Under the pieces are notes generated by a model. The model saw only the letters and a list, made by a program, of their open reading frames with translations, made no database searches and was not told where the DNA came from. A DNA stretch of 64,000 nt from an uncultured Verrucomicrobiae bacterium (GTDB lineage Bacteria; Verrucomicrobiota; Verrucomicrobiia; Chthoniobacterales; Chthoniobacteraceae), in the NCBI GenBank assembly GCA_963836755.1, contig CAWIKF010000002.1:1312001-1376000 (forward strand), read 5' to 3'. Both the position numbers and the translations under genes were made by a program. This document shows, in pieces, positions 1 to 61,086 of the stretch. Position 1 is the stretch's first letter, and each line of letters begins with the position of its first letter.

Positions 1-5
1 GCATT

Positions 6-2333: not shown

Positions 2334-2566
2334 GAGTGCGGCGAGAGTAACCGCACGCATCGCGCGCGGGAAGTTTTTCCGTCAGCGTGGTTCGTCCAAG
2401 CGGTCAGCCGCCGCTGGCAGGCATGCCTACTTTCAATCCCCGGCAAAGGCGGCGGCGCCTGATAAGACTCCGCATAAAAGCGGATGCCACAACTCGGACA
2501 ATGCGGGTAAGGCTGGAGCACGAGTGGCCCGCGACAGGCGCATTACACAGTTAGCATCGGTTGAAG

Positions 2567-3046: not shown

Positions 3047-3061
3047 AGGGTGAGATGGATT

Positions 3062-3092
3062 GGATAACGAGAACAAGATGAGCTATAGGCGG
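3062..3092 (-). repeat. attC right-arm remnant of the same family as the 29-kb array
   Basis: Minus strand GCCTATAGCTCATCTTGTTCTCGTTATCC vs GCCTGTAGCTGATCTTGTTCTCGTTAGGC at 29559-29587 (25/29 identical). Confidence 0.75.
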
Positions 3093-3778: not shown

Positions 3779-3829
3779 GGCAACTTTCGGCTCCTAGTCG
3801 CGCGCGGAAGGAGCCTGAGACTGTAGCAA

Positions 3830-4132
3830 GGCATTTTGGCACTCCAGATGAGCGTTTTCAGCTGCAGAACGGCGTCTGGCCTCTCCAGATGAGAATTTGA
3901 AGCTTTAAAAAGGCGTCTGGCCTCTCCAGATGAGAATTTGAAGCTTCAAAATGGCGTCTGGCCGCTCCAGATGAGAATTTGTGGCTTCAAAAAGCCGTCT
4001 GGCCGCTCCAGATGAGAATTTGTGGCTTCAAAATGCCGTCTGGCCGCGCCAGATGAGAATTTGAAGCTTCAAAAAGCCGTCTGGCCGCGCCAGATGCTGT
4101 TTTGAAGTCCCGGATTGGCATCTGGACGCTCC
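3830..4132. repeat. 41-bp tandem repeat, about 7.4 copies, two hairpins per unit
   Basis: Units start at 3830, 3871, 3912, 3953, 3994, 4035, 4076, 4117; consensus G(G/C)CGTCTGGCC(T/G)CTCCAGATGAGAATTTGAAGCTTCAAAA(A/T). Confidence 0.95.
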
Positions 4133-27700: not shown

Positions 27701-27740
27701 GATTTTGTATTCCACCGAGCTCGGCTCAGCGGTGGGCTGA
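24731..27740 (+). pseudogene. addA: AddA/RecB-like UvrD helicase with C-terminal PD-(D/E)xK nuclease, split by a +1 frameshift near 25741 (possibly a sequencing error)
   Basis: First ORF: AGAGVGKT, TYTKAAAEEL, GTIHSF, LDEAQDT. Second ORF: VGDEQQAIY, TCHKAKGLEW, YVTLTRAK, GVIDLV..IDWKTD. Confidence 0.8.
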
Positions 27741-28157
27741 CGCCGCGTGGCCGTCCGCGCGGTCGCACAACTTTTTCGTGAGCACCAGCTCCGTGCCGCG
27801 CTCTTTTAAAACATAATCGACCTCGTCAAAAACCGACTTGATCAAGTGCAGCCCGAGCCCGCCCGGCTGCACCTCATCGAGCGCGCGCCTCGGCAGCGGC
27901 GTCTCCGTCTGCTCGCCGTAATCGCGCACGCGGAAGCAGACGCCGCCCGTCACACACTCGCAGCTCAGCGCCATTAAATGCGTTTCCTCATGTTTATACA
28001 CGTGTCGAATGACGTTTGTGCACGCCTCATCCACGCCGAGCACCAGCAGATCGCTCTGCTTCGTCTCGAAGCCGCACTCCGCGGAAAATTTCCGCACGAG
28101 ATCGCGCACCAGCGAGAGATTCGCGGGATGGCTGGCAAACTCGATGTGATGCTTCAT
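27726..28157 (-). CDS. Anti-sigma factor/serine kinase (RsbW-like HATPase_c_2)
   Basis: DEACTNVIRH, VRDYG, GGLGLHLIKSVFDEV, GTEL; start placed at MKHHIEF. Confidence 0.88.
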   Translation of the reverse strand: MKHHIEFASHPANLSLVRDLVRKFSAECGFETKQSDLLVLGVDEACTNVIRHVYKHEETHLMALSCECVTGGVCFRVRDYGEQTETPLPRRALDEVQPGGLGLHLIKSVFDEVDYVLKERGTELVLTKKLCDRADGHAASAHR

Positions 28158-28884
28158 TAGGAAAAATAAAACGTAGCACGTTTGCCGCGGTGCGCGTATC
28201 GGGTTTTTGACGCGTGGTTGCATTCGTGGAAAAGCGACCGCCGAAGCGGGTGGGGGAGAGCCGAGCCGCAACAGCCGCCGCGCCCTTGCGCAAAAAAGAG
28301 CGGCAGCCCCTCCCAAAACGCTGCCGCTCCCACTCAACGCCAAAATTTTTACGCCGTTATTTGCGCGCGGGTTCGAGCTGATGCTCGGGTGGCCATTCGC
28401 ATGACCGTTGCTCGCGATTGCACGCGGCGTCAGCGCCGTTGGGTCAACAGCGGGCGACTCCGCCTTTGGCTCCAGCGCGGCAGCGGGCGGGATCGTCACC
28501 ACGATCGGCTCACTCGCCAGCCCCTGGCGACCCGCACTGCGTTTATTCCGCATGCACACAATGTGCGGCGGAGCTTGGGTGAAGTAGCAGCACCAGTGCC
28601 AGCCCTCGCAAAGTCGCAAAAATATTTGCTCGGCGAGCATCGATTTGAAAAAACGTGACCTCAAAAAAGATTTTCCTGCCCGGTTCTGAAAAAATCCGGC
28701 CTCAAATAAGTTCCGCGAGCCCCGATTTAAAAAAATCCCGCCTCCACGAGCTTCGGCGCCACCTACTTAGGACGCAGAGCTCATGATCGAGAGCGTTTAT
28801 GCTTGCCCCCGCACGCCGCAAGCGATAGCCAATCGGCCATGCCACGAGCACGGGCGGCAGCGTGGCGGAAAGCAAACATTTTCG

Positions 28885-28996
28885 GATTAGGCTCAATCGC
28901 GCAGATTTTACTCCGATGAAAAACAACCTCCGCCCGATTAGACTCAATAAATGCGCATTATATTACGCATTTTTGGGGCCTAATTCTCGTTAGGCC
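28885..28996 (+). other. attI-like site at head of the cassette array
   Basis: GGCCTAA-TTCTC-GTTAGGC simple site (28977-28995); direct repeats GATTAGRCTCAAT at 28885 and 28936; palindrome AAATGCG-N10-CGCATTT at 28949-28972. Confidence 0.55.
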
Positions 28997-29012
28997 TCAA
29001 AGCACGCGCTCT

Positions 29013-29468
29013 ATGAAACTCATCGCGTTTCTTTTCACATTCCTTGCAGCATCACTTTTCTGTCGCGGTGAGACGACCGTTTCAGGGACTCAGGATGGCC
29101 GTCCCTTGAGCGTCATCGGCAGTCAGGCACCGCAGGTTGAGAAGCTCGCTACAGCACTCCTCGTTTCATCTGACTACGAAGCGCCAGGTCGCATTGCCAC
29201 GGAAGCACGGTGGAAACAGGTATTGGGAGCATCTCACATTCACATCGTCTTTTCGGAGCCTCGCAAGTTCTCGTTTCGATTCAGCACGTCAGGGCCAGCG
29301 AGAGTCCAAGAGGTTTCTGCCGAAGAGGTTCTTATTCCCATTTCTCACGAGAATTCGCCGGATTATGTCTTTGTTAGATTCCACGATCATGTTCGTGCGT
29401 TCGCCAAGTTTAGTTGCGACGCTGGCACAGCTTTACAGAAGATGCTTCCACCACGTTCACATCAATGA
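29013..29468 (+). CDS. Cassette 1: secreted hypothetical protein
   Basis: Signal peptide MKLIAFLFTFLAASLFCRG; stop abuts attC1. Confidence 0.8.
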   Translation: MKLIAFLFTFLAASLFCRGETTVSGTQDGRPLSVIGSQAPQVEKLATALLVSSDYEAPGRIATEARWKQVLGASHIHIVFSEPRKFSFRFSTSGPARVQEVSAEEVLIPISHENSPDYVFVRFHDHVRAFAKFSCDAGTALQKMLPPRSHQ

Positions 29469-29469
29469 G

Positions 29470-29587
29470 GCCTAACCATGCGATGCAGCTAACGGCCTCC
29501 GTCTGTCACACTGGCTGCTCCCCGGAGATCCGCCACGGCAGCTACCGCGCCGCGGTCCGCCTGTAGCTGATCTTGTTCTCGTTAGGC
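29470..29587 (+). repeat. attC1 (118 bp)
   Basis: GCCTAAC-CATGCGATGCAGCTAAC...GTAGCTGATCTTGTTCTC-GTTAGGC. Confidence 0.95.
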
Positions 29588-29608
29588 GACTCAGACCACG
29601 TTTTCCCA

Positions 29609-30418
29609 ATGAACACCGAAGACCATACCAAACACACACACACCTCCCGCAGCATCGACCTCCGCCCCATCGGCGCCGTGGCTCTCGCCATCGCCATCGT
29701 CTGGTCCACGGCCATTGCTGCCGGTGCTTGGCGCGAAGTCCGCAAACGCCCGGAAAGGCACAACATCCGCGTCACGGGCTCGGCCAAGAAGCGGATCGTC
29801 TCCGACCTCATCCAATGGGAGGCAATCATTGAGGGTCGCGCACCTGAGCGCACTGCTGCTTACAGGACGCTGCGTGAGGGCCGTGACAAGGCAGTGGCGT
29901 TCCTTCTCGCCCAAGGCATCAAGCCCGACGAGATCCAGCCACAGTCCACCACCTTCCAGGAGGTGTTCGAGACGGTCACTGAAGACAAGGTGCTACCCGG
30001 AACCACCGTTCCCGTCCACACCGTAAAGAAGGTCTCCAACGGATTCTTGACCCGCGAGTCAATCGTAGTGCGCTCGACGGACGTGGCGCGCATCGAGAAG
30101 GCCTCGCGCGAGATCACTTCCCTGCTTGACGAAGGCGTGTCAGTGAACTCCGAGAACCCGAATTACTTCTACACGCGACTCGGAGAGCTAAAGCTCGAGA
30201 TGCTGGCATCGGCAGCCAAAGATGCCCGCGACCGCGCCGACAACATCCTTCGCTCCGCGGGCAATGCCGCCATCGGCAAGTTGGTTGTCGCCGACATGGG
30301 AATCATCAACATCAATCCCGCCAACTCCACCAGAACCTCCGAAGAAGGCAACAACGATACAACCTCTCTCGACAAAGACATCATTACTATTATTCACGCC
30401 GAGTTCGAGGTGAAGTGA
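29609..30418 (+). CDS. Cassette 2: SIMPL (DUF541) domain protein
   Basis: IRVTGSAKKRIVSD, LKLEMLASAAKDARDRA, NNDTTSLDKDI. Confidence 0.85.
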   Translation: MNTEDHTKHTHTSRSIDLRPIGAVALAIAIVWSTAIAAGAWREVRKRPERHNIRVTGSAKKRIVSDLIQWEAIIEGRAPERTAAYRTLREGRDKAVAFLLAQGIKPDEIQPQSTTFQEVFETVTEDKVLPGTTVPVHTVKKVSNGFLTRESIVVRSTDVARIEKASREITSLLDEGVSVNSENPNYFYTRLGELKLEMLASAAKDARDRADNILRSAGNAAIGKLVVADMGIININPANSTRTSEEGNNDTTSLDKDIITIIHAEFEVK

Positions 30419-30447
30419 TCCTATCCCATGCTACAAAACTCCAAGTC

Positions 30448-30629
30448 GCCTAACCATGCGATGCAGCTAACAGGCTCCGTCCGTCACGGTAGCTGCTCCC
30501 CGCAGACCTGGCTCGCAGCCACCGCGCCGCGTTGATGAGCATTGCCATGCTCACCCTTCCGGCTGGCTTTCAGCCAATCTATCTCGCTCCGCTCGGTTCC
30601 GCCTGTAGCTGATCTTGTTTTCGTTCGGT
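30448..30629 (+). repeat. attC2 (182 bp; R' = GTTCGGT)
   Basis: GCCTAACCATGCGATGCAGCTAACAGGC...GCCTGTAGCTGATCTTGTTTTCGTTCGGT. Confidence 0.92.
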
Positions 30630-30648
30630 CTATATGGGGCCTTGCCTT

Positions 30649-30907
30649 AATGTTTTTTCACTCACAACAGACACAAGCGTTTTCAGAAACCGACCAGTAT
30701 GAAGATCTCAAAAGCAACAACGTGCCGACGTTGATTATCCACGGTGACGCCGATCAGATCGTGCCGATCGAAAACTCGGGAAAGCTCCAGGCGAAATTGG
30801 TGAAGAACGCGCAATTGAAAATCTATGAAGGCGCTCCGCATGGCCTTTGCACGACTGACAAGGTCAAAGTAAATGACGACTTGCTTGAGTTTATCCAAAA
30901 GACCTAA
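30649..30907 (+). pseudogene. Cassette 3: C-terminal fragment of an alpha/beta hydrolase (non-heme haloperoxidase-like)
   Basis: [27 protein letters not shown] are present; the N-terminal two-thirds with the nucleophile is missing. Confidence 0.82.
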
Positions 30908-30961
30908 CCAAGCGATGCAGCTAACAGGCTTCGCCTGTAGCTGATCTTGTTCTCGTCAGGC
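30902..30961 (+). repeat. attC3 (60 bp minimal; R' = GTCAGGC)
   Basis: ACCTAACCAAGCGATGCAGCTAACAGGC-TTC-GCCTGTAGCTGATCTTGTTCTCGTCAGGC. Confidence 0.93.
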
Positions 30962-30999
30962 CACTCTGCCGCGCGCCCGCCAGCAAAAGCATTCAAGAT

Positions 31000-31536
31000 A
31001 TGACAGCCAAAGGAGATGACCGAATTCTCGACTTCGCTGCCACTGGTATGTGGTGGGAGATTACCAAGTCTACCGCCGACACCGGCGGAGACTATTTTGA
31101 GGCCATAAATGTCATTGCGCCGGGTTTTGCCGGCCCGCCGTTGCACATTCATCCGCACGCCGAAGAGAGCTATCATGTCATGGAGGGCACGCTGGACGTG
31201 TGTGTGGGTGGTGAGTGGCGAGAGTTAGGCCCGGGTGACTCGGCGACCGTTCCAACCGGAACGGCCCACACCCTGAAGAATCCACATCCGATCGAGGCGC
31301 GGCTACGCAACGTGCATAAGCCGGCGCTCGCCTTTGAGCGTTTCTTCCGGCGGATGCATACTTTGGTTGCAGACGGCAAGCTGACGCTCCCGCCGAAGAA
31401 CTTTGGTTCGCTCATCCGTATCTCGATGCTTTTTGTGGAGCACGAGAACGAGATCAAGTCGGCCGTGCCGCCTCACGCAGTGATGGTCGCGCTGGCTTTC
31501 ATTGGGAAGCTCCTTGGATACAAGTTGCCGTCATGA
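31000..31536 (+). CDS. Cassette 4: cupin domain protein
   Basis: PPLHIHPHAEESYHVMEG and PGD...VPTGTAH cupin motifs. Confidence 0.9.
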   Translation: MTAKGDDRILDFAATGMWWEITKSTADTGGDYFEAINVIAPGFAGPPLHIHPHAEESYHVMEGTLDVCVGGEWRELGPGDSATVPTGTAHTLKNPHPIEARLRNVHKPALAFERFFRRMHTLVADGKLTLPPKNFGSLIRISMLFVEHENEIKSAVPPHAVMVALAFIGKLLGYKLPS

Positions 31537-31558
31537 GCGCCGTCATAACATCCAAGTG

Positions 31559-31688
31559 GCCTAACCATGCGCTGCAGCGAACGGCTCCGTGCGTCACGAG
31601 CCATGCTCCGCCACCTTTCCCCCAGCCACCTTCGCCCGCGCGTGGCTCGCGCCGCGCTCCGGAGTCGCTGAGCTTGGGGTCGTTAGGC
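31559..31688 (+). repeat. attC4 (130 bp)
   Basis: GCCTAACCATGCGCTGCAGCGAAC...GTCGCTGAGCTTGGGGTCGTTAGGC. Confidence 0.95.
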
Positions 31689-31699
31689 CAGTTTCGCAT

Positions 31700-32161
31700 A
31701 TGTCGATTTCAACGCTTTTCATTCTGATCTTCGTGGTTGTCGGCCTGGGCATCGCGGCGTTTGGAGCACGCAGCCTGATTCACGCTCGCGCGAGTTCGAC
31801 ATGGCCTCACGTTCCCGGCGAGATTAAGCATTCGGAGATCAACCAAAGCTCTGACAGCGACGGCACTTCATATTCGCCACTGGTTCGCTACTCGTATTCT
31901 GTCAGCGGCCAGTCTTTCACCGGTGAACGGATCTGCTTCGGCCTCGCCAAGATGTCTGCCGGATACCAATTTGCGCAGGCCTACATCGAGCGTTATCGCG
32001 TCGGCTCAGCAGTGCTCGTTTACTACGACCCGACTCAGCCATCGTCATCCGTGCTGGAACCTGGCATCTCCAAGCGCGCCTTTATGCCCATCGCATTTGG
32101 GCTTGGATTTGCTATTTTCGGCGGGTGGTTTGCCTTACTTTTCTGGCTCTTTCAGCCATGA
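31700..32161 (+). CDS. Cassette 5: DUF3592-like membrane protein
   Basis: TM, W..VPGEI..S, VRYSYSVSG, VYYDP..P..SVL, TM. Confidence 0.85.
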   Translation: MSISTLFILIFVVVGLGIAAFGARSLIHARASSTWPHVPGEIKHSEINQSSDSDGTSYSPLVRYSYSVSGQSFTGERICFGLAKMSAGYQFAQAYIERYRVGSAVLVYYDPTQPSSSVLEPGISKRAFMPIAFGLGFAIFGGWFALLFWLFQP

Positions 32162-32168
32162 CCAAGTG

Positions 32169-32292
32169 GCCTGACCATGCGCTGCAGCGAACCGCTCCGT
32201 GCGTCACGGCACCTGCTTCCGCCGCCGCCGTGCGGACCACCATGCAGGTGCCGCGCCGCACTTCGCGGTCGCTGAGCTTGGGATCGTTAGAC
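32169..32292 (+). repeat. attC5 (124 bp; R'' = GCCTGAC)
   Basis: GCCTGACCATGCGCTGCAGCGAAC...GTCGCTGAGCTTGGGATCGTTAGAC. Confidence 0.92.
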
Positions 32293-32306
32293 TCAGAGCG
32301 TTTGCA

Positions 32307-32747
32307 ATGAACATCAGCGTTTCTATTTTGATCTGTGGCTTCATGGCATCGGCAGCTTTTGCGGGTGATTCCTCGCAGTCATCCGCCGAGATGAATGAAA
32401 ACCACCATTGCGACCGCCATAATTGTTACTTCTTTTTTCGCTGCATCTATCTGGCAACTGACGCTGAGGAGAAGGCGGCGAATGCTCCCGCAAACGAACC
32501 GGAGACCCCCGCTTCGCCCAAGGATAACTCCCTTGAGTTTCTGGCTGATGTTCCGTCGCTCAGCGCCGTCTCGGTGCGAATGACTGAAGCGGCATTTTTC
32601 GACATCGTAAAGCAGCAGAAACTCAGCTTCGAAAGGAAAGCTACCGATGATGAAACCGCCTACTACGTTCACCCAAAGGAGGGCGTTCTCGTGTATTTCG
32701 GTTTTCGACAATCTCGATGCACCGGCATCCAACGACTACGTGATTGA
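32307..32747 (+). CDS. Cassette 6: secreted hypothetical protein, probably a fusion of two cassette genes
   Basis: Signal peptide at 32307; a second signal peptide (MKTTIATAIIVTSFFAAS) in another frame at 32395. Confidence 0.55.
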   Translation: MNISVSILICGFMASAAFAGDSSQSSAEMNENHHCDRHNCYFFFRCIYLATDAEEKAANAPANEPETPASPKDNSLEFLADVPSLSAVSVRMTEAAFFDIVKQQKLSFERKATDDETAYYVHPKEGVLVYFGFRQSRCTGIQRLRD

Positions 32748-32766
32748 AAACCCCAAATGCCAAGTC

Positions 32767-32891
32767 GCCTAACCAAGCGCTGCAGCGAACTGCTCCGCGC
32801 GTCACGGCACCTGCTTCCGGCCTCCCCCCTTTCCCCCACCGCACAGGTGCCGCGCCAGCCTCCGCAGTCGCTGAGCTTCGGGTCGTTAGGC
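32767..32891 (+). repeat. attC6 (125 bp)
   Basis: GCCTAACCAAGCGCTGCAGCGAAC...GTCGCTGAGCTTCGGGTCGTTAGGC. Confidence 0.95.
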
Positions 32892-32912
32892 GTCATTCCA
32901 CTTTCCCCCAAC

Positions 32913-33335
32913 ATGAAGCTACCAATACAGATACTCACTTCAATTTTGATGCTCGCAAGCATCGCCACTGCCGCAACTCCAGAAGAAGAAGCTCGGTTCT
33001 TGAACGCTATTCGTGATGCCTACAGCAAAAAGGACAAAGAGGCGATTATCGCTTCTACCTGCTGGGATCGCGTCACGGAGCAGCACAAGAAACTGGCTCC
33101 GAAGGCTATTGATTATGCCATGAGCAACCCAATCAAGTCGGTTCAATATCGGGCACTTGATCCTTCCGAAGTCTACACTTACACCAAAGATGGAATTACC
33201 TACGGCCCCAATTTGCCGATCGTCAAGCAAATCGAGATCGAATACGCCGTTGCCCCAGGCAAGCTGACGTCAGAGTTGTTCCTCGGCGAGAAGGAAGGGA
33301 AGCTCATGATCGTCAATCTCGCTCCTCAACCGTGA
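32913..33335 (+). CDS. Cassette 7: secreted hypothetical protein
   Basis: Signal peptide MKLPIQILTSILMLASIATA; starts 21 nt after attC6. Confidence 0.8.
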   Translation: MKLPIQILTSILMLASIATAATPEEEARFLNAIRDAYSKKDKEAIIASTCWDRVTEQHKKLAPKAIDYAMSNPIKSVQYRALDPSEVYTYTKDGITYGPNLPIVKQIEIEYAVAPGKLTSELFLGEKEGKLMIVNLAPQP

Positions 33336-33735
33336 CGCCGGCGACTCCTACGCCCGTCACTTAACCATGCGAAGCCGCTACCGCTTCTCGGCTGTCTGTT
33401 GGAGTTCCTAGAGGAGATCGATTATACCGCCTCGGAGACGAGGAGTTTGCAGCAGTCCTCTCCGGCGAGTCATCGCGCACACAGAGCGCAGTCACCGGTT
33501 TTGTCTATCCTCGCTCATGGGCACCGTATCCCAAGACCCGAATGGTCGAAGAGCGGGATGGCAAGTGACCGCGTGGCGTATTGTCGATCCCTCATCGCCG
33601 AATGAGAATCGCAATTACACCTCGACTCGCTATGAGGCTGGCAGGTAGTCTCGGTAACGCTCGACATGCACTGCAAGATTATCTGCTACTTACCATGCGT
33701 TTTATGATTCCGTCCTTCTTGAGCAAGACCGCAAC

Positions 33736-33812
33736 GCCTAACTATGCGCTGCAGGCAAATCGATGAGTAACTCGCAAATAAGCGGCTCCGCCGGTAGCTG
33801 AGCTTGTTCTCG
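33736..33812 (+). repeat. Degenerate attC (R' truncated after G)
   Basis: GCCTAACTATGCGCTGCAG...GTAGCTGAGCTTGTTCTCG, with no TTAGG following. Confidence 0.8.
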
Positions 33813-33819
33813 AAATCAC

Positions 33820-34267
33820 ATGAAATCCTCCATTCAACCTCCTCGGATTGAAACGCCGTGTCCGAAGCGATGGGAGGCGATGTGTGGCGACTCGAAGCAG
33901 CGGTTTTGCGACCACTGCAAGCTTCACGTTCACAACCTTTCGGCGATGTCGGATACAGAGCGTGAAGGATTTTTACGCTAGGTCCGGTGGCCATGCTTGC
34001 ATTGTCTATGCGGTTCGTCCCGATGGCTCGATGGTTACTCCGTCTTACTGGTCCTGGCTGGTGCTACCGTTTCAGCGGCTTCATTGGTCTGTTGCCGCGC
34101 TGCTGGCCGCATTTCTCCCGTTCTTATTTTCATCTTGCGCCACACGCCGCACGATAGGAAGGGCATCTCCCACATGCGACGCGCCCGCGCCGCACATGAA
34201 CAACAGCAAGCAGTTCGCGCTTCCTGGCAGAGCATTAATTCCTCCTACGACCAAGCCGCAACAATGA
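33820..34267 (+). pseudogene. Frameshifted cassette gene with Cys-rich N-terminal domain and a TM/lipobox-like segment
   Basis: ATG 33820 gives MKSSIQPPRIETPCPKRWEAMCGDSKQRFCDHCKLHVHNLSAM, stop at 33981; continues in +1 frame ARSGGHACIVYAVRPDG. Confidence 0.7.
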
Positions 34268-34276
34268 ATTCGGGTG

Positions 34277-34312
34277 GCGTAACAAGCTTCGCCTGTAGTT
34301 GAGCTTGTTTTC
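34277..34312 (+). repeat. Collapsed attC remnant
   Basis: GCGTAACAAGCTTCGCCTGTAGTTGAGCTTGTTTTC. Confidence 0.65.
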
Positions 34313-34332
34313 CCTAAATCCTCTCAGTCCGC

Positions 34333-34821
34333 ATGACGTCGCGCCCAATCTCACATCAACTGCTTGGCCTGCTAGGCTGGCTTTTGGTCGTGTTCGCGGC
34401 TGCAGCAGTCGGAGCTGTGGCGTCTATACACGCGCCATCTTTCTATGCGCAGCTCATCAAGCCATCATGGGCTCCGCCTGCCAGCGTTTTCGGCCCAGTG
34501 TGGTCGGTGCTGTATGTGCTAATGGGCGCTTCTGCCTGGCTGGTGTGGCGGTCTTTACCGCCGCGGTGGGATGCGCTTGCTCTGTTTCTCGCCCAGCTCG
34601 CGGCGAACGCACTTTGGTCGTGGCTCTTTTTTGCGTGGCATCAAGGGGGACTTGCTACGGCGGAGGTGTTGCTGTTGTTAATGCTCATCGCGCTGACGAT
34701 GCGATCATTCTGGTCAGGTAGTCGGCTCGCCGTTCTATTGCTGTTACCCTATTTGTTTTGGGTAGGCTTCGCATCAATGCTGACCTGGTCGATTTGGCAG
34801 CGCAATCGGGGTCTCGTCTGA
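34333..34821 (+). CDS. tspO: Cassette: TspO/MBR tryptophan-rich sensory protein
   Basis: FYAQLIKPSWAPPASVFGPVWSVLY, QLAANALWSWLFF, LLPYLFWVGFA. Confidence 0.93.
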   Translation: MTSRPISHQLLGLLGWLLVVFAAAAVGAVASIHAPSFYAQLIKPSWAPPASVFGPVWSVLYVLMGASAWLVWRSLPPRWDALALFLAQLAANALWSWLFFAWHQGGLATAEVLLLLMLIALTMRSFWSGSRLAVLLLLPYLFWVGFASMLTWSIWQRNRGLV

Positions 34822-34835
34822 TGAGCGCCGAATTT

Positions 34836-34896
34836 CATCATGCGATGCAGCGAACTGCTCCGGGCGTTACGGGAGCTGAGCTTGTTCTCATTAGGC
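34836..34896 (+). repeat. Degenerate attC (R'' lost, R' = ATTAGGC)
   Basis: CATGCGATGCAGCGAAC...GAGCTGAGCTTGTTCTCATTAGGC. Confidence 0.8.
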
Positions 34897-34933
34897 GTCG
34901 CGCCGGCTTTTTACAAACGAAGTTAACACACCT

Positions 34934-35322
34934 ATGAACCAAAATCGCAATCCTGTAGGATGGGTCGAGCTCTACTTTCAAGACATGGAGCGAGCCAAGA
35001 CGTTTGTAAGATCTTATTCAGGTCACACTCGAACCTCTCGACAGTCTGGGTATGGAGTTGTTTGGGTTCCCGATGCAGCACGAGAGTCCCGGGATGCGCC
35101 GGAGCGCTGGTCAGGATGCCAGGCAAGGATTCCGGCGGAGGCGGAACCATTGTTTACCTTTCTTGCCGTGATTGTGCCGATGAGGCAGCCGGCGCCGTTC
35201 AGAATGGTGGCCGAATCCACAAAGAGAAGACTTCAATCGGCCAGTATGGCTTCATCGCGCTCATCTTCGATACTGAAGGCAACATGATCGGCCTTCATTC
35301 AATGCAACGACCGCAATGTTAA
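34934..35322 (+). pseudogene. Cassette: VOC/glyoxalase family gene with two frameshifts
   Basis: NPVGWVELYFQDMERAKTF in one frame, MELFGFPM in another, GALVRM...IGQYGFIALIFDTEGNMIGLHS in a third. Confidence 0.82.
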
Positions 35323-35367
35323 CAACGCAGCCCGGGGAACGGAGGCTTTCACTTTGACTCCAGTCCT

Positions 35368-36408
35368 ATGAAAAGCGTTCGACTCTCATGCTTCCTGATT
35401 CTGGCGCTGCTCCTCGCTTTCACGCCGTGCCGGCGAGCCACAGCGGACGCTGACCCACGCAAGCAACTCCCGCCGCAGATCAAACAGCTCACATGGTTTG
35501 GTGAGCGAGCCGACTTTCGGCACGACGGCCGGCGCTTTGTCTTTCTCAACCATGTCTACGGAGACGTGTATGAATACGATCTCGAGTCTGGGCGCATCAC
35601 TTGCTGCACCGGCCATTTCCTGCACTTCGGATTTGTGCGGGCGCTCTACCTCGCCAATGGCGACCTGCTTCTGAGCGGACCGAATGCTAACTTTGATCCG
35701 ACGAGCAAGAAGGATCGCCGACGCGCGCGCGATAGCAGCTATCTCTACGTGCTCGACAAAAGTATCACGAAGCCGCCGGTGCCGCTCGGCGTGCAGTGCA
35801 ATGAAGGGCCGGCCGTCTCGCGCACGCGCTTGCACATCGCGTGGACGCACGGCGAACAGGATAAGATGTCTACCGGCGACATCGTTTATGAAAACGGCAC
35901 GCCGAAGCTCGTGAACCAGCAACTCATCCTCCAAACGAGTGACTTCCCCGCTGGCGAGAGGCCGCGGAAATGGATCGAGACGCAGAATTTCATTCCACCC
36001 GATGAGACAAAGCTGACCGTCACGGCCTACGAGATCAACAACACCGATAACACGGAGACTTTCGTCTTCGACCTGAAAACCAAAACGCTCACGAACATGT
36101 CGCGCACGCCGGATCGTTACGAGGAATGCGAGGGTGTTTTCCCCGAAGGTAAATCGACGCTCGTAGAGAGCGCGGAAGTCAAGGGCCGCTGGCCGCTCGT
36201 GGACTTGTATCGACTGTGGCTCGACGGCAGCGGGCGCAAGGAGCGGCTGACGCATTTTACTGACTTCAAAAACTGGAAGGCCGCCGACGGTGTCATCAGT
36301 GACGACGGGAAGTTCATGCTCTTTCAGGAAGGACGCGGCGGCACGGAGGCCGGCCAAGGTTTCGGGATTTACCTTTACGATTTTTCCAAGGTCCGCAATC
36401 CGCAATGA
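35368..36408 (+). CDS. Secreted TolB/PD40-like beta-propeller protein
   Basis: Signal peptide; blade repeats GERADFRHDG, EGVFPEGK, RLTHF...ISDDGKFMLFQ. Confidence 0.75.
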   Translation: MKSVRLSCFLILALLLAFTPCRRATADADPRKQLPPQIKQLTWFGERADFRHDGRRFVFLNHVYGDVYEYDLESGRITCCTGHFLHFGFVRALYLANGDLLLSGPNANFDPTSKKDRRRARDSSYLYVLDKSITKPPVPLGVQCNEGPAVSRTRLHIAWTHGEQDKMSTGDIVYENGTPKLVNQQLILQTSDFPAGERPRKWIETQNFIPPDETKLTVTAYEINNTDNTETFVFDLKTKTLTNMSRTPDRYEECEGVFPEGKSTLVESAEVKGRWPLVDLYRLWLDGSGRKERLTHFTDFKNWKAADGVISDDGKFMLFQEGRGGTEAGQGFGIYLYDFSKVRNPQ

Positions 36409-36415
36409 ACCGAGT

Positions 36416-36451
36416 GCCGAACCATCGCGGCTGAGCTTGTTTCTGTTAGTG
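36416..36451 (+). repeat. Collapsed attC remnant (36 bp)
   Basis: GCCGAAC-CATCGCG-GCTGAGCTTGTTTCT-GTTAGTG. Confidence 0.7.
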
Positions 36452-36453
36452 AT

Positions 36454-36636
36454 ATGCGTGCTCGGACGAAAGCCAGACTCATTACTCTGCTGATAGTGAG
36501 CATCTTGTTCGCTGTGATGCTCTACCGGGCGAACCACCCTTACACGGTTTCGCGTAATGCGATGGGGAAAGAAGCTTACCTCCCATCCGAGGCGGGGGCT
36601 TCGACAGAATATTTGCGCAGCCTGAAAGGCACTTGA
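36454..36636 (+). CDS. Short membrane-anchored ORF, probably a truncated cassette gene
   Basis: ATG directly after attC remnant; one TM helix. Confidence 0.4.
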   Translation: MRARTKARLITLLIVSILFAVMLYRANHPYTVSRNAMGKEAYLPSEAGASTEYLRSLKGT

Positions 36637-36790
36637 CCTCTCCGCGGTTAGTCTTTGCCTGCGCTAGGATGGGTCTTGGGTGCGCAGCTTTTTCTATTGG
36701 CTTTTATGAGTTGCTCACTTTCACTATTTACAACGCAATCGGTCCCGGCAAAACTGAGGTGCATACACCATCTCAAAACACTCAAGTATC

Positions 36791-37126
36791 ATGAAGATCA
36801 CGCGGATATTCCTTCTTTTACTACTTTGTTCGTTTGTCACTGTTACTGCTGCACCTCCCGCGGTGCATTGGTATCAGGTTTTCATCAATGGTTCCTCATC
36901 GAAGACACTCACCGGCTCGTCGCATTTTGATCCTGAGCAACTGGCGGTGAAGCTTAACGGCGCCGACCCGATCGTGCTTGAAAACCTGCGAGATATTTTC
37001 GCGCGATCCAGTGACGAACCGATGAGATGGCATCCGGATGACTCGACGGTCAAGGCGGTCATCCCAACTAAGAGCATCCTTTACTTCACGGAGTTGCCCG
37101 GCGATCCGGCAGCGCCGAAGAAGTAG
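36791..37126 (+). CDS. Secreted hypothetical protein (cassette-like)
   Basis: Signal peptide MKITRIFLLLLLCSFVTVTA. Confidence 0.7.
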   Translation: MKITRIFLLLLLCSFVTVTAAPPAVHWYQVFINGSSSKTLTGSSHFDPEQLAVKLNGADPIVLENLRDIFARSSDEPMRWHPDDSTVKAVIPTKSILYFTELPGDPAAPKK

Positions 37127-37137
37127 CTTCAGCCGTC

Positions 37138-37749
37138 ATGAGCCACCGTGCTAAACTTTACTGCGCGGCTGGCATCGTCGTGGTGATCGCCTTTGCGGTT
37201 TGGCGCGATTATCGAGATGGATGCGGTCCTTTCCCGGACTGGCAGACTTCGGCTTATGTGCTGCCTTATCCAGTAGGTTCCTCGTATTTCGTGAGCCAGG
37301 CGAACTGCTCGACTGGCGGCCATCACGGCGCCTATCAGTATGCGTATGATTTCGCCATGCCTATCGGAACGACGGTGACTGCCGCTCGGGCGGGAGTGGT
37401 CGCCGAGATTCGCATGAGGTTTCGCGACGGCCAGCCGGGAGAAGGTGAGTCCAACTGGGTGAAGATTCGTCACGCGGACAATACCATCGCCGCTTACTCG
37501 CACCTGACGGCGAATGGTGCGCTCGTGAAGATTGGCGATCGGGTTGTGGCCGGGCAAGCGATTGGACGGAGCGGCAATAGCGGCAACACGGGAGGATTGC
37601 CGCACTTGCACTTTCACCTTTGTCCTTGTTCGGAGCCAGTCGATTGCGGCACTCTGCCAGTGACGTTTCGCAACACCGATGCGAATCCACATGGGCTACA
37701 GTCCAAACGCTATTACGTCGCGCTTCCCTATGCCAGGAACGGCTCCTGA
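37138..37749 (+). CDS. M23 family metallopeptidase (cassette)
   Basis: H-x-x-x-x-x-x-YDF (HHGAYQYAYDFAMPIGT), YSHL, SGNSG, PHLHF. Confidence 0.9.
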   Translation: MSHRAKLYCAAGIVVVIAFAVWRDYRDGCGPFPDWQTSAYVLPYPVGSSYFVSQANCSTGGHHGAYQYAYDFAMPIGTTVTAARAGVVAEIRMRFRDGQPGEGESNWVKIRHADNTIAAYSHLTANGALVKIGDRVVAGQAIGRSGNSGNTGGLPHLHFHLCPCSEPVDCGTLPVTFRNTDANPHGLQSKRYYVALPYARNGS

Positions 37750-37804
37750 TAATGCGATGCAAGTAACGCGCGGCGCGGCGCCTGTAGCTGACCTTGTTCT
37801 CGCC
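37744..37804 (+). repeat. Degenerate attC
   Basis: TCCTGATAATGCGATGCAAGTAAC...GCCTGTAGCTGACCTTGTTCTCG-CC (TTAGG deleted). Confidence 0.78.
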
Positions 37805-37818
37805 ATGTAGCATCGAAT

Positions 37819-38067
37819 ATGTCGCGTATTTTGATAGCACTTTTTTCAGTCGGCTGGATTTTTCCGATGTGGCTGGCAGCGCACACCTATCTCGAGTTTA
37901 TGCAGATCGAGGTATGGCCGCGATTGTCAGGGCAGCAGCCGATGAACAGTTTCCCGTTTATCCGGCTTAGCGAGCAGACACTTGCGATAGGCTGCATGTG
38001 GCTTGCCGCCGTTATTTTATTTTGGTCTTGGAGATCGACTGGCAAGAGAAAGGTTGACGATGCCTAA
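37819..38067 (+). CDS. Small two-TM hypothetical protein (cassette)
   Basis: Follows attC remnant; stop lies in GCCTAAG, an R''-like sequence. Confidence 0.65.
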   Translation: MSRILIALFSVGWIFPMWLAAHTYLEFMQIEVWPRLSGQQPMNSFPFIRLSEQTLAIGCMWLAAVILFWSWRSTGKRKVDDA

Positions 38068-38090
38068 GACATCGCTGTAGGGAACGGTTC

Positions 38091-38372
38091 ATGACAATGA
38101 ACGCGATTACCGATATGGTTCATCACCTTACTTTCACTGCACGTCTTCTCGGCGGCATTGTTCTTATTTTCATCGGAGGAGTATGGATGGCTTTCGCGGC
38201 TTATAGCGAAGACACGACTTTGGGGCGCTTGCTTACGTTCGTTCCCGGTCTTGCGCTATTTTTTTGCGCGGAGCATCCGAAGAAGGGGTTGCCTCCACTG
38301 ATCCTTCAACTGATCGGCATGGCGCTGTTTGCTTCGGCTGTTTTTTCTCGTTTTCCCGGAGGTAATCAGTAA
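38091..38372 (+). CDS. Small membrane hypothetical protein
   Basis: Three hydrophobic segments, co-oriented with the array. Confidence 0.55.
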   Translation: MTMNAITDMVHHLTFTARLLGGIVLIFIGGVWMAFAAYSEDTTLGRLLTFVPGLALFFCAEHPKKGLPPLILQLIGMALFASAVFSRFPGGNQ

Positions 38373-38445
38373 GTAATTGCCAACGGTGCAACGACACGCG
38401 CTTAGACCTTGAAGCTTTAAGTCAATCCCGCTACCGCTCAATGCC

Positions 38446-38811
38446 ATGAACACTTTCCCCTCGGCCATTAATTCGCAGTCCCGCCGTCAAACTTACATCG
38501 GCGCTGTTCTTCTTTCGCTGCCAGCCTTGTTCTTCTGGATCGCGGCGCGGGTGTTTCTCCTGCCGAGGCTGGAGTATGACTGGCAGCGTTCCGCCGTCGC
38601 GACTTCCCACGCGCAATGGGTCATGAGCATCGTGCAGGCGATCCTGCATCACGGCCCGATCCTTCTCCTCGCGCTTGCCGGCGCTTTGTTGGTGATGGAA
38701 TTGCGCTTCGCAATTAACCGGCGCATCACGATCGGAGCGACCGTTTTTGCCGTCAACTCCGCGGTGTTCCTCGGGCTGACTGCGATGTGTGTGGCGGCGC
38801 TCATCAAGTGA
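38446..38811 (+). CDS. Small three-TM hypothetical protein
   Basis: Hydrophobic helices, co-oriented with the array. Confidence 0.6.
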   Translation: MNTFPSAINSQSRRQTYIGAVLLSLPALFFWIAARVFLLPRLEYDWQRSAVATSHAQWVMSIVQAILHHGPILLLALAGALLVMELRFAINRRITIGATVFAVNSAVFLGLTAMCVAALIK

Positions 38812-38844
38812 ATTGAGCAAAAAGCCCTGACGAGGGAACAAAGT

Positions 38845-39081
38845 ATGACCCATCACAGCGCGAAGACCATTTGCACCACGGCGATCTGGATTGCGACGGC
38901 CGTGATTTTTACCTTTGGCGTTTTTCGCTTTACCTGGTCCGGCGCTCTTCCCGGCTTTCTCTGGTCAGCCGTCGCTTTGGCACTGGCCCTCGCTGCGCAA
39001 AAAGCGACGCAGTCAGTGTGGAAGGATCCCGCGCCCGACAAGAACAGCACGATTTCGCCAATCGAGCCGCCCACGGCGTGA
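38845..39081 (+). CDS. Small two-TM hypothetical protein
   Basis: GAGGGA RBS-like site upstream; two TMs. Confidence 0.6.
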   Translation: MTHHSAKTICTTAIWIATAVIFTFGVFRFTWSGALPGFLWSAVALALALAAQKATQSVWKDPAPDKNSTISPIEPPTA

Positions 39082-39162
39082 GCCTGATGCTAAAAGCTGG
39101 GAAGCTTAAAGGAAGTTCCCAAAGCTTCACTGCGCAAAGTGGTCGATAGCTCGCGTCCGACG

Positions 39163-39582
39163 ATGAAAGCACGAACGGCATCTCTCGCGGATTGCGCGCA
39201 GCTCGCAGAGATGAACCATCAACTCATTCGCGATGAGGGACACCACAACCCGATGACGCTCGCGGAGCTTGAGCAGCGAATGCACGGCTGGTTGACGAGC
39301 GGAGAATATCGCGCGGTCATCTTCGAGCGCGACTCCCAGTCGCTGGCTTACGCGCTCTATCGCATCGAGGCTGATGACAGCATTTTCCTTCGGCAGTTCT
39401 TTGTTTCGCGCGAGCATCGGAGACAAGGCCTTGGCAGAGCGGCCATTGATCTGCTTCTTCTCGACGTTCTGCCGTTGGGCTCCAGGATCAAAGTCGAGGT
39501 TCTCACGACGAACGAGGCTGCCCGGCGCTTTTGGTCAGCAGTCGGCTTTCGTGATTACTCGCTGACGCTGGAACGTTCATGA
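39163..39582 (+). CDS. GNAT family acetyltransferase
   Basis: FFVSREHRRQGLG motif A; N..A..FW..VGF motif B. Confidence 0.9.
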   Translation: MKARTASLADCAQLAEMNHQLIRDEGHHNPMTLAELEQRMHGWLTSGEYRAVIFERDSQSLAYALYRIEADDSIFLRQFFVSREHRRQGLGRAAIDLLLLDVLPLGSRIKVEVLTTNEAARRFWSAVGFRDYSLTLERS

Positions 39583-39823
39583 CGAGAAAGGTTTCGCCCG
39601 CGGTCCATTCGCGTGGCTTCGAGCGTTTCGGGCTCGAGCGCGATGCTTTGTCCATTGACCGCAAAATTTCGATGAGGAGCATCTTGTTCTTTGCTTCAAC
39701 CATGACGCCTGATACTGCGATGCAGTTGTTTGCTCGGTGCGTCATCCCAGCTCTCGCGAGCGACGACGTCTTGAAACATGAGACCTACTTTCTTGCGGTC
39801 GGGCAAATGAAGCGCGCGATTTC

Positions 39824-58581: not shown

Positions 58582-60255
58582 TTACAAAGCGGAAAGCTCG
58601 CGAACGACTTCGCGCGGCGATTTGTCCTCGCGCAGGCCCAGGAACGCCGGATGGCGCAGGCCGGCATCGCGCGTCCATTCCGTGAAGCGCACCTGGCAGA
58701 CGAGCGCAGGCTCGATCCAGGTGCAGCGCTTCATCTCGGCGCGCGTAATTCCCTGTCCCCATCGGCCTTTGCGCTGAGTCGGCAGATTCGCAAAGGGGCA
58801 ATCGTCGCGCTGCAACTTTTTCATCTTCGCGTGCAATTCGCGCAAAAGTTTTTCGCTGAAACCGGTGCCAACTTTTGCCGCAAAGATCAGTTTTTCCTTT
58901 TCGTAAAAACCGACGAGCAGCGCGCCGAAATGGCTGCGCGCGCCTTGCGGATCGGTGAAGCCGCCGATGACAAATTCCTGTTCGTTCGTCACTTTTAATT
59001 TCACCCACGCACCGCTTCGCCGGCCGGTTTCGTAAACGGAATCGCCGCGTTTGCCGACGATACCCTCGAGCCCGAGTTTTTTTACATTGTTTAAAAGTTC
59101 AGCGACGTCGCCTTCGAGATTTGCGGAAAAGCGGATTTCGTCCGGCGCATCTTCGAGCAACTTTTCCAAAACTTTTTTCCGTTCGGTCAAAGGCAATCCG
59201 CGCAAATCGCGGCCTTCGAGATTCAATAAATCGAACGCGTAATAACAGATCGGCGGATGCTCCTCGTTCATGTCGTGCGCCTGCAGGAGCTGAAAAGATG
59301 GGCGACCTTTTTCGTCGAGCGCGACAACTTCGCCATCGATCACCGCGCTTTTGCACGGAAGTTTTTTCAGCGCCGGAACCAGCTCCGGAAATTTTTGCGT
59401 CAAGGTTTTTTGGTTGCGCGAAATAAGTTCCGCATCCTTTTCGCGCTTGATGACGAGCGCGCGGAAGCCGTCGAATTTCAACTCGTAAATCCAGCCGGTT
59501 CCCGACGGTTTTTTTTCCACGGACTTTGCTTTCATCGGCTCGATGAATGCCGGTTTCGCCTCTGGAAGTTTTTTCAGTTCGGCGAGATCGAATGACGCGT
59601 TCTTTGCCGCGACTTCTTTTTCAACGACGGATTTTTCGCGAACTTTGGTCGCGAAACTTTTGCTTTTGTCGTCGCGGTTCGATTGCCATTCGGCGTCTTT
59701 GTCGGCAGCGATGCGCGCCATTGTCCGCTGCGTCAGGATCGATTCGTCGTCGTGCTTTTTGGAAATCGCGCGCATCGACTCGTCGCTTTTCAAAAGCAGC
59801 CACGCATTTTTTTCGTCAGAATTTTTGAGCGCGATCAGCGTCCATTCGCCGTCGAGTTTTTTTCCGTGGAGCGCAAAGTGCAGCTTCCCCTCGTCGAGGT
59901 CGCGCGCGGGCTCGTCGCTGCCGAGCGGCTCCCACGTGCCGATGTCCCACACCATCACGGTGCCGCCGCCGTATTGGCCTTTCGGGATGATGCCCTCGAA
60001 GCGCGCGTAATCGAGCGGATGATCCTCGACGTGCATCGCGAGACGCCTGTCGCCTTTTTTAAATGGGACGCCTTTCGGCACGGCCCACGATTTCAGGACG
60101 CCGTCGAGCTCGAGGCGGAAGTCGTAGTGCAGCCGCGAGGCGTCGTGTTTTTGAATGACGAAAAGCAGGCCTTTTTTGCGCCGCGCTTTTGTTTTTGGCG
60201 CAGGCTCCGCGGTTTTTTTGAAATCGCGTTTCGCCTTGTATTCGCGCAGTCCCAT
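58582..60255 (-). CDS. ligD: NHEJ DNA ligase D (phosphoesterase + ligase domains, no polymerase domain)
   Basis: QKHDASRLHYDFRLE PE domain; ELKFDGFR, DGE, EGIVGK, LRHP ligase motifs. Confidence 0.93.
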   Translation of the reverse strand: MGLREYKAKRDFKKTAEPAPKTKARRKKGLLFVIQKHDASRLHYDFRLELDGVLKSWAVPKGVPFKKGDRRLAMHVEDHPLDYARFEGIIPKGQYGGGTVMVWDIGTWEPLGSDEPARDLDEGKLHFALHGKKLDGEWTLIALKNSDEKNAWLLLKSDESMRAISKKHDDESILTQRTMARIAADKDAEWQSNRDDKSKSFATKVREKSVVEKEVAAKNASFDLAELKKLPEAKPAFIEPMKAKSVEKKPSGTGWIYELKFDGFRALVIKREKDAELISRNQKTLTQKFPELVPALKKLPCKSAVIDGEVVALDEKGRPSFQLLQAHDMNEEHPPICYYAFDLLNLEGRDLRGLPLTERKKVLEKLLEDAPDEIRFSANLEGDVAELLNNVKKLGLEGIVGKRGDSVYETGRRSGAWVKLKVTNEQEFVIGGFTDPQGARSHFGALLVGFYEKEKLIFAAKVGTGFSEKLLRELHAKMKKLQRDDCPFANLPTQRKGRWGQGITRAEMKRCTWIEPALVCQVRFTEWTRDAGLRHPAFLGLREDKSPREVVRELSAL

Positions 60256-60267
60256 TGGAACCGCGGC

Positions 60268-61086
60268 TCAGGCCGCTTTTTTGCGCTTCGCGGGCGCAGA
60301 AGTTTTCTTCGATTTTTTGCCGGAGTTTTGAAGGCTTTGCTGCAAGACGGAGACGAGATCGATGACGTTCGTGGCCTTGCGTTTCGGCGCGGGTTTGCCG
60401 GGCGCGGCTTCGGGATGCTCGATTTTTTCCTCGATGACTTTTTCCAATTTCGCGCGGTAGTCGTCCTTGTATTTTTCGGGCTCCCACTCGCCGCTCATGC
60501 TGTCAACGAGCGCCGTCGCCATATCGAGTTCCTTTTTGCCGACCTCATGTTTCGTGATTTTTAATTCGCTGGCGTTCACGAGTTCTTCGGCGAAATGCAT
60601 CAGCTCGAGCACGAGGCCGCGCTGGCTCGGTTTTACGCCTGCGAGATATTGGCGCGTTTTGATGACGACTTTTGCGATGCCAATCTTGCCGGTTTTTTCC
60701 AGCGCCTCGCGGAGCAGCGCGTAGGCTTTGTCGCCGCCTTTTTCCGGCTCCATATAATAAGGCTTGTAGAAAAACATCGGGTCCACTTCCTCGAGATCGA
60801 CGAAATCCGTGATATCCACCGTCTGCGTCGCCTCGACATCCACGCGGGCAAAATCTTCATCCTTTAGCACGATGAATTTTCCTTTTTCGTGCTCGTAGCC
60901 TTTCACGATCTGATCCCACGGAACCTCCTTGCCATCGGCCTCAGCGACGCGTTTGTAATTGACTGGGCTCAAATCGCTCGCGCGCAAAAGGCGGAATTTC
61001 AGCTCCTCTTTTCGCGTCGCCGGATAAAGCGCGATCGGAATGTTGACGAGGCCGAACGAAATGGCTCCCTTCCAAATGGCACGCAT
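60268..61086 (-). CDS. ku: Ku protein
   Basis: MRAIWKGAISFGLVNIP, IVKGYE, YKDDYR, VIDL...LQQSL, basic tail. Confidence 0.97.
   Translation of the reverse strand: MRAIWKGAISFGLVNIPIALYPATRKEELKFRLLRASDLSPVNYKRVAEADGKEVPWDQIVKGYEHEKGKFIVLKDEDFARVDVEATQTVDITDFVDLEEVDPMFFYKPYYMEPEKGGDKAYALLREALEKTGKIGIAKVVIKTRQYLAGVKPSQRGLVLELMHFAEELVNASELKITKHEVGKKELDMATALVDSMSGEWEPEKYKDDYRAKLEKVIEEKIEHPEAAPGKPAPKRKATNVIDLVSVLQQSLQNSGKKSKKTSAPAKRKKAA

Follow-up and report, generated by a model that had tools for sequence, protein, structure and literature searches.

How does a chromosome come to hold a long row of gene cassettes with no integrase beside it? The question is raised by a 64-kb stretch in the genome of an uncultured Verrucomicrobiae bacterium (C2:1312001-1376000; the stretch is called the window and the genome G000 hereafter), in which palindromic repeats resembling attC, the recombination sites of integron cassettes, separate short co-oriented genes. 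A sequence-only reading had taken the locus for either a group of clustered attC sites that has no integron-integrase (CALIN) or a sedentary integron without the integrase gene intI. Our analysis indicates, with a probability of about 0.72, that the locus is a genuine cassette array with an attI-type head, likely derived from a further copy of this genome's integron platform that lost intI, and that it would be movable only by a distant integrase (IntI). Both earlier labels fit, the second being better supported by the attI-type head and by the remnant of a platform-flanking gene.

The attC span of the array extends over 28990-37808, on the + strand throughout, with short co-oriented genes between the sites, as seen by direct reading and by a genome-wide pattern scan. 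The six full-length sites of 60-182 bp announced in the sequence-only reading are all present, and the remnants, put there at five or more, number six. The full-length sites lie at 29470-29587 (118 bp), 30448-30629 (182 bp, the 118-bp type with an insertion of ~64 bp, R' GTTCGGT), 30902-30961 (60 bp, R' GTCAGGC, 82.9 bits with the covariance model introduced below), 31559-31688 (130 bp), 32169-32292 (124 bp, R'' GCCTGAC) and 32767-32891 (125 bp). Both RYYYAAC/GTTRRRY cores are canonical in three of the six, and each of the other three carries one substitution (GTTCGGT, GTCAGGC or GCCTGAC). The remnants follow on the same strand: 33359-33378, of which only R''-L'' is left; 33736-33818, with R'' and L arms intact and R' lost (GAAATCA; model match 33773-33811, E 3.5e-4); 34268-34319 (E 0.042); a near-complete site of 65 bp at 34832-34896 with a degenerate R'' and R' ATTAGGC (35.8 bits, E 1e-7); a 36-bp stump at 36416-36451, recognised by motif only and without a match to the model; and 37744-37808 (27.7 bits, E 2.6e-5). 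Decay grows with distance from attI, from six whole sites to stumps and to none after 37808. The extent formerly given, to 39582, can therefore be demonstrated as far as 37808, while the five open reading frames (ORFs) at 37819-39582 have no detectable attC and may be fossil cassettes. A possible further remnant at 39650-39720, spotted by eye, was dropped for want of support from the covariance model. A scan of the window against Rfam gave no matches, which is uninformative since Rfam has no attC family.

The repeats are genuine attC sites by their cores, their covarying structure, their strand asymmetry and their cassette-specific flanks. The covariance model (R1) is based on 19 sites of the 60-bp class, of which 18 lie outside the window array. 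With filters off it returned eight matches in the window at E <= 0.05, all on the + strand and all inside 29470-37808. At E <= 1 the number rises to 13; two of these, a - strand match (E 0.84) and a match within the TspO gene (E 0.72), are probably noise. R1 splits or under-scores long attC sites, so that its counts are lower bounds. For the long sites, 14 of the 20 exceeding 90 bp, four of them from the window, were given to RNAalifold; the six left out comprise one duplicate of an included site and five of other length classes misaligned by MAFFT. Without constraints, the consensus has R'' and R' paired in a helix of 7 bp, then a spacer left unpaired, an L helix interrupted by two bulges, and finally a long variable stem. 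On this structure 94.0% of cells are paired, against 82.9 +/- 1.1% in shuffled alignments (none of 500 as high), and 14 of the 36 pairs show changes on both sides, a number reached by one shuffle in 500. Sliding the partner by one to three columns lowers the pairing to 22-48% (at most 47.7%).

Folding of the strands with DNA parameters, as the sequence-only reading had proposed, revealed a bottom strand more stable than the top one in all six full sites, by 1.1-5.8 kcal/mol. The bulged bases on the bottom strand are T and C; the canonical extrahelical pair of attC is T and G. The cassette flanks speak for the same assignment. Over 39 cassettes genome-wide, on average 3.00 of the six bases past the core at the 5' end of a cassette are complementary to the flank of that cassette's R'', compared with 1.93 +/- 0.17 for permuted partners (0 of 5000 permutations reach the observed value) and 2.16 for the neighbour in situ. 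The window's seven cassettes score 4, 4, 3, 4, 4, 1 and 2. The four complementarities quoted earlier (GTTAGGCCTCA/TGAGGCCTAAC and three others) are present as written, with mismatches as marked, and their interpretation as the trace left by circular cassettes that recombined at G/TT is borne out by the excess over permuted partners.

The first element of the array is an attI-type site and not an attC. This simple site, GCCTAAT-TCTC-GTTAGGC at 28978-28995 (+), has its predicted crossover between G28989 and T28990, and its 16-mer 28980-28995 is identical to the one adjoining intI at C2:766123-766138. If up to two mismatches are allowed, the genome has seven copies of the 16-mer that lie outside attC sites (the true attI, the window site and five others), and an eighth was found by blastn. 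Cassette 1 starts with TTAGGCCTCA and ends with TGAGGCCTAA, and so entered by recombination at the 28978-28995 site. Upstream of the core lie two direct ATTAGRC boxes, at 28886-28892 and 28937-28943 (+), which are candidate accessory IntI-binding boxes. A homologous ATTAGAC box is found in the attI adjoining intI of G000 and of G002, a genome of the same genus. The window head aligns with both of these attI sites, and with that of G002 it has the upstream ATTAGAC box and a ATTATATTACG segment in common. By homology, the array would thus begin with attI, as a classical integron platform does. The attI1 of class 1 integrons consists of a simple site and two direct repeats. The window resembles it in its inverted core boxes with a short spacer and its two upstream direct boxes, and differs in having no sequence homology to attI1. 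The IntI-binding role of the ATTAGRC boxes, drawn from the attI1 architecture, is a putative one.

The DNA upstream of the head hints at where this attI came from. At 28250-28540 (-) lies the 3' remnant of an unnamed gene of ~350 aa that adjoins intI in the complete integron of this genome; ~880 bp of its 5' part are deleted. Segment 28389-28536 shares 96.6% identity with C2:1470127-1470274, where a ~350-aa gene (C2:1470103-1471170) has its 3' end. Segment 28292-28409 shares 82% with C2:763425-763542, which comprises the 3' end of the paralog C2:763492-764535 together with its terminator; this paralog sits directly behind intI of the complete integron. By tblastn, the remnant matches a paralog with 92% identity over 50 aa. 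The gene has no Pfam family. Behind intI it is also found in G028, a genome from a different family of the order, and a further remnant of it adjoins the array at C2:2000 kb. Between the gene remnant and attI, positions 28537-28770 hold a decayed copy of the 41-bp repeat leader that at other heads separates this gene from attI or intI; it is 77% identical over 223 bp to C2:1471173-1471393, and TRF detects no repeat there any more. The order of gene, repeats, [intI], attI and cassettes is kept at the window array, minus intI, and points to a platform copy that probably lost intI rather than to a random CALIN. The same remnant explains part of the ORF at 27726-28664 (-, 312 aa) formerly called RsbW-like: the label holds for the last ~155 codons, which match HATPase_c_2, are RsbW-like and have homologs in relatives, while the rest is chimeric, the N-terminal half reading through the terminator and the flanking-gene remnant.

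At four G000 loci the ~350-aa gene is preceded by 5-8 tandem repeats of 41/42 bp, and it lies either behind intI or before orphan attI heads. Loci with this repeat-plus-gene module include L009 489-2050, L012 2600-4165 and window 28250-28770.

No integron integrase is encoded in the window: none of the genome's eight TIGR02249 matches falls in it, and tblastn with IntI gave only noise at E <= 10. The earlier statement that no tyrosine recombinase is recognisable in the window thus holds for the integron integrase. A profile search of the whole genome, which the sequence-only reading had suggested, located one intact IntI at C2:765056-766015 (TIGR02249 474.5 bits, cut-off 265), 575 kb upstream on the contig that also carries the array. 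The description of the array as integrase-less is hence correct locally and does not extend to the genome. Residues 20-336 of this 338-aa IntI (P0001) align with VchIntIA of Vibrio cholerae (PDB 2a3v) at E 5.9e-93, a stretch that we take to include the IntI-specific segment of VchIntIA. IntegronFinder calls an integron complete when intI lies at most 4 kb from attC, a distance far exceeded here, and the array falls under the definition of a CALIN.

Beside IntI stands a complete integron, C2:765056-768273, with attI and four cassettes that carry the same attC family as the window. Its cassette 2 is homologous to cassette 7 of the window (79.9% identity over 577 bp including the upstream attC, 84% over 140 aa). 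The ends of this shared cassette still match perfectly in the complete integron, where its attC measures 60 bp; in the window its attC is a stump. Genome-wide, the pattern scan yielded 44 rows, one of them nested, and hence 43 distinct full-length sites, which are spread over 14 loci and two contigs; R1 gave 45 matches at E <= 0.01. Only one of the 14 attC-family loci, near 766 kb, has intI, and there are ~13 further loci besides the window; attI-like heads without intI occur at six places besides the window. The sites of the genome fall into classes of 60 bp, ~118 bp and ~124 bp, and the first attC of the window is 73-91% identical to other sites of the genome.

Two other arrays deserve mention in their own right. 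The attC sites L011 1301-1418 and L012 1324-1441, 42 kb apart, are identical over 118 bases, and their window equivalent differs at ~11 positions; the L011 and L012 arrays may be younger than that of the window, or may be undergoing gene conversion. L011 100-260 (C2:1426100-1426260) contains short heptamer-like tandem repeats of the CAGTAGT and ACTGGAA types. These closely precede an orphan attI head, at C2:1426374, in which a few initial bases of the intI start region survive.

Taken together, these features can be best explained as follows. The genome would have gained another copy of its integron platform at the window locus, cassettes would have entered at the attI end of this copy, and intI would have been lost from it. 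The IntI encoded 575 kb away would act in trans, recombining folded attC bottom strands at G/TT. The array reads as an ageing one: because the distal sites are eroded and three proximal cores are changed, most of the cargo is probably on its way to fixation as ordinary chromosomal genes. The attC sites at 29470-29587, 31559-31688 and 32767-32891, with canonical cores and full structure, look competent.

Several observations weigh against this account. Neither TIGR02249 nor tblastn finds an intI pseudogene fragment between the repeats and attI, and because no fragment is detectable, the loss of intI is deduced from synteny only. No sigma-70 consensus promoter occurs in 28200-29100, although the promoter type of the lineage may differ from the consensus used in the scan. 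R1 matches the window sites partly by construction, the 60-bp class displays no covariation, its members being too alike, and the fold energy is modest for two sites (bottom-strand z -1.5 and -0.9 relative to shuffles). The cores of three of the six full sites have changed, with the intact partner box preserving the original: GTTCGGT vs ACCTAAC for cassette 3, GTCAGGC vs GCCTAAC for cassette 4 and GTTAGGC vs GCCTGAC for cassette 5. A comparison of cassettes between 15 array loci gave no pair above 84% identity. Given this decay and the low cassette identity between arrays, there is therefore no sign of current activity or recent traffic.

Other data on age and activity can be set beside these. 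Two cassettes have overlapping frames, which suggest frameshifts, and two orphan heads among the 15 loci are 95% identical to each other. In one public soil read run, which probably stems from the source sample, 55% of sampled words were present, as low-depth contigs. Read joints 29496->29566 and 29588->32768 were considered as traces of excision and rejected, each being carried by one contig with a short side and lying in or at attC repeats. GC skew, compared with the array orientation, gave a signal too weak to place the origin or terminus.

The loss of intI is among the four possible origins of CALINs given in the sections of Cury et al. (2016; PMC4889954) used here, and other routes have to be weighed against it. 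Had the array been split off the complete integron by a rearrangement, without ever possessing a platform of its own (their mechanism iv), the attC family and the homologous cassette found in both elements, as well as their position on the same contig, would be accounted for. Such a split would bring distal cassettes without attI, whereas the window has an attI-type core and a copy of the intI-flanking gene; moreover, the complete integron still possesses an attI and a copy of that gene for itself, and the shared cassette is only 80% identical, which makes this route distinctly unlikely. We also consider it unlikely that the distant IntI inserted the cassettes singly at an off-target site resembling attI (mechanism ii). 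IntI can insert cassettes outside att sites, according to the portion of bioRxiv 10.1101/2022.09.11.507474 consulted, and the junction of cassette 1 is clean at G/TT; however, the likeness of the head to attI goes beyond a GTT, for it includes the full 16-mer, the upstream ATTAGAC box and the ATTATATTACG segment of the G002 attI, and the head is accompanied by the flanking-gene remnant. That the repeats are not attC at all but a palindromic intergenic family resembling repetitive extragenic palindromes or miniature inverted-repeat transposable elements is hardly credible. They are indeed imperfect palindromes in intergenic positions with no Rfam family, yet they have RYYYAAC/GTTRRRY cores, a single orientation and flank complementarity specific to each cassette, the same family stands directly beside bona fide IntI in G000 and G002, and the stem covaries.

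Two further possibilities concern the present state of the array rather than its origin. It may be a completely dead relic in which no site can recombine and all genes are now ordinary chromosomal ones, an explanation we take seriously and place somewhat short of even odds. The core substitutions in three of the six full sites, the six sites reduced to remnants, the lack of near-identical cassettes common to the arrays, one cassette with a truncated gene and two with possibly frameshifted genes all agree with it. It is opposed by the sites 29470-29587, 31559-31688 and 32767-32891, whose canonical cores and full structure are retained, and by the intact IntI of the genome. At the other extreme, the genome might harbor a distributed integron, one IntI serving at least seven attI docks on two contigs, with heads that lack intI kept as working capture sites. 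We regard this as possible but doubtful. Such a multi-dock arrangement of intI-less, attI-headed arrays was not found described in the literature searched, which is weak evidence of absence. The platform copy deprived of its intI is the explanation we retain for the array as a whole.

Comparison with 41 genomes of the order, counting G000, places the array in a wider context. IntI scores above the cut-off in 18 of them, and the R1 attC family is found in 13, with 16 sites in G002, 14 in G028, nine in G015 and five in G001. G015 has at least five IntI matches above the cut-off: four are full-length (three on its contig C5, one on C7), and a fifth, shorter one is in two pieces on C5; the four C5 matches lie within 50 kb (G015:C5:173782-220999). 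The closest named contigs to the IntI include metagenome-assembled genomes of Verrucomicrobiia, Chthoniobacterales and Udaeobacter (66-69% identity) and also Proteobacteria (65-70%), so that IntI does not decide the phylum. To the left of the array, the UvrD-like and RsbW-like genes have kept their synteny in G002; it stops exactly at the array head, and G002 has no array at that place. The comparison of the interval between the RsbW-like and ADH genes in relatives, which the sequence-only reading had proposed, thus reached the RsbW-like side in G002; ADH was not found in G001 or G002 with the query used. An identical gene order across distant relatives, which that reading had named as evidence against an integron array, is not what G002 displays.

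The ~19 co-oriented short genes or fragments counted in the sequence-only reading correspond to 19 co-oriented ORFs, all on the + strand. Cassette 1 (28990-29581, attC 29470-29587) encodes a signal-peptide-like protein of 151 aa without family (ORF 29013-29468). Cassette 2 (29582-30623, attC 30448-30629) holds a SIMPL/DUF541 protein at 29609-30418. Cassette 3 (30624-30955, attC 30902-30961) retains the C-terminal ~88 codons of an alpha/beta hydrolase at 30641-30907, its Pfam match being limited to profile positions 97-208 of 213. Cassette 4 (30956-31682, attC 31559-31688) encodes a cupin at 31000-31536, and cassette 5 (31683-32286, attC 32169-32292) a DUF3592 membrane protein at 31700-32161, with a paralog in another array of the same genome (C2:1772829-1773158). 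Signal-peptide-like proteins follow in cassette 6 (32287-32885; 146 aa, 32307-32747; attC 32767-32891) and in cassette 7 (32886-33400; 140 aa, 32913-33335), the attC of the latter being reduced to R''-L'' at 33359-33378.

Farther from the head the units become less regular. The cassette at 33819-34319 has a 53-aa Cys-rich ORF (33820-33981), overlapped by a second frame at 33848-34267, and is possibly frameshifted; it ends in the attC remnant 34268-34319. The next one, 34320-34896, encodes a TspO/MBR protein (34333-34821, 135 bits) before the attC at 34832-34896. Two ORFs occupy 34897-36451: 34934-35287, without family and overlapped by another frame, and 35368-36408, a signal-peptide-like protein of 346 aa without family, followed by the stump 36416-36451. 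Three ORFs at 36454-37808 encode a 60-aa membrane protein, a 111-aa secreted-like protein and an M23 peptidase (37138-37749), closed by the attC remnant 37744-37808. The last five, at 37819-39582, comprise four small membrane proteins and a GNAT protein, with no R1 match. They may be fossil cassettes, for which one of the five, ORF 38446-38811, offers support: an array of G015 contains an ORF of 73% identity that has attC R' modules on its flanks and is a bona fide cassette there. This homolog speaks for a cassette origin of at least that portion of the distal end.

The families represented in the cargo are SIMPL/DUF541, cupin, DUF3592, TspO/MBR, M23 peptidase, GNAT and the hydrolase fragment, and 12 products have no family. 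A simple hydropathy screen combined with a reading of the N-termini, both heuristic, classifies ~14 of the 19 products as signal-peptide-like or membrane proteins, in line with the mostly secreted or membrane cargo formerly stated. None of the 19 was matched by PADLOC, no NCBIfam match exceeds the curated cut-off, and no resistance, toxin or defence family was found among them. The SIMPL gene of cassette 2 is the only SIMPL/DUF541 gene of G000, with no second copy. Homologs are found in two other genera, in G014 (82% aa identity; L109 2052-2849) and in G028 (70%; L110 2202-2996), where R1 with filters off detects no attC near them and the neighbours are ordinary genes. This comparison may bear on where cassettes come from.

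Elsewhere, window 1-3850 and L019 (C2:1309598-1310083) form a second small cassette cluster on the - strand, with an ORF for an Imm5-like immunity protein (3083-3778), an attC R' remnant at 3062-3083 and two attC modules just outside the window. At 58582-61086 (-), LigD with phosphoesterase and ligase domains adjoins Ku, a bacterial non-homologous end-joining pair.

The array belongs to a kind of element already known; its retained attI and platform synteny are the less usual features. It resembles the complete integrons of G000 and G002 (C27) in attC family, attI core, orientation away from attI and one homologous cassette, and differs from them in the absence of intI, in its number of cassettes (13-19, against four in G000 and at least eight in G002) and in its more advanced decay. 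Large Vibrio-type sedentary chromosomal integrons, with tens to hundreds of cassettes and highly homogeneous attC sites, are not matched by 13-19 cassettes with attC sites of three length classes. In Xanthomonas, the inactivated intI reportedly remains recognisable at a fixed locus, whereas in the window intI is gone without trace and the genome has many such arrays along with one intact integron. A chromosomal array that outlasts integrase function is the feature in common with the sedentary integrons of Xanthomonas, so far as described in the portion of bioRxiv 10.1101/2025.06.18.660453 used here.

The closest likeness to described material is with CALINs as defined by Cury et al. (2016; PMC4889954). 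The sections of that work used here report integrons in Verrucomicrobia, a phylum also listed among the integron-bearing ones in the corresponding part of Ghaly et al. (2021; PMC8618304), as Verrucomicrobiota. About half of the CALINs counted in PMC4889954 lie in replicons that encode IntI; here too, the same replicon holds a complete integron, and the cargo is of unknown function with no resistance gene. According to the same sections, intI pseudogenes were found near only 15 of 279 CALINs, and the window, with none detectable, behaves as most of them do. The difference lies at the head, where the window array keeps an attI-type site and the remnant of a platform-flanking gene. IntegronFinder, as described in those sections, leaves attI unassessed for most integrons, whose attI sequence is unknown.

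For the order, the results document an integron-rich soil lineage, with IntI in 18 of 41 genomes and, in the genome at hand, one intI for ~14 attC-family loci. Two leads follow: whether attI sites without intI still capture cassettes in trans, and the source of the cassettes, for which the SIMPL gene of cassette 2 and its 82%-identical, non-cassette homolog in another genus offer a starting point. The history of a CALIN is usually invisible, because the attI sequences of most environmental integrons are unknown. At this locus the head still displays the likely route by which this cluster originated, as a platform copy with attI and flanking gene, minus intI.

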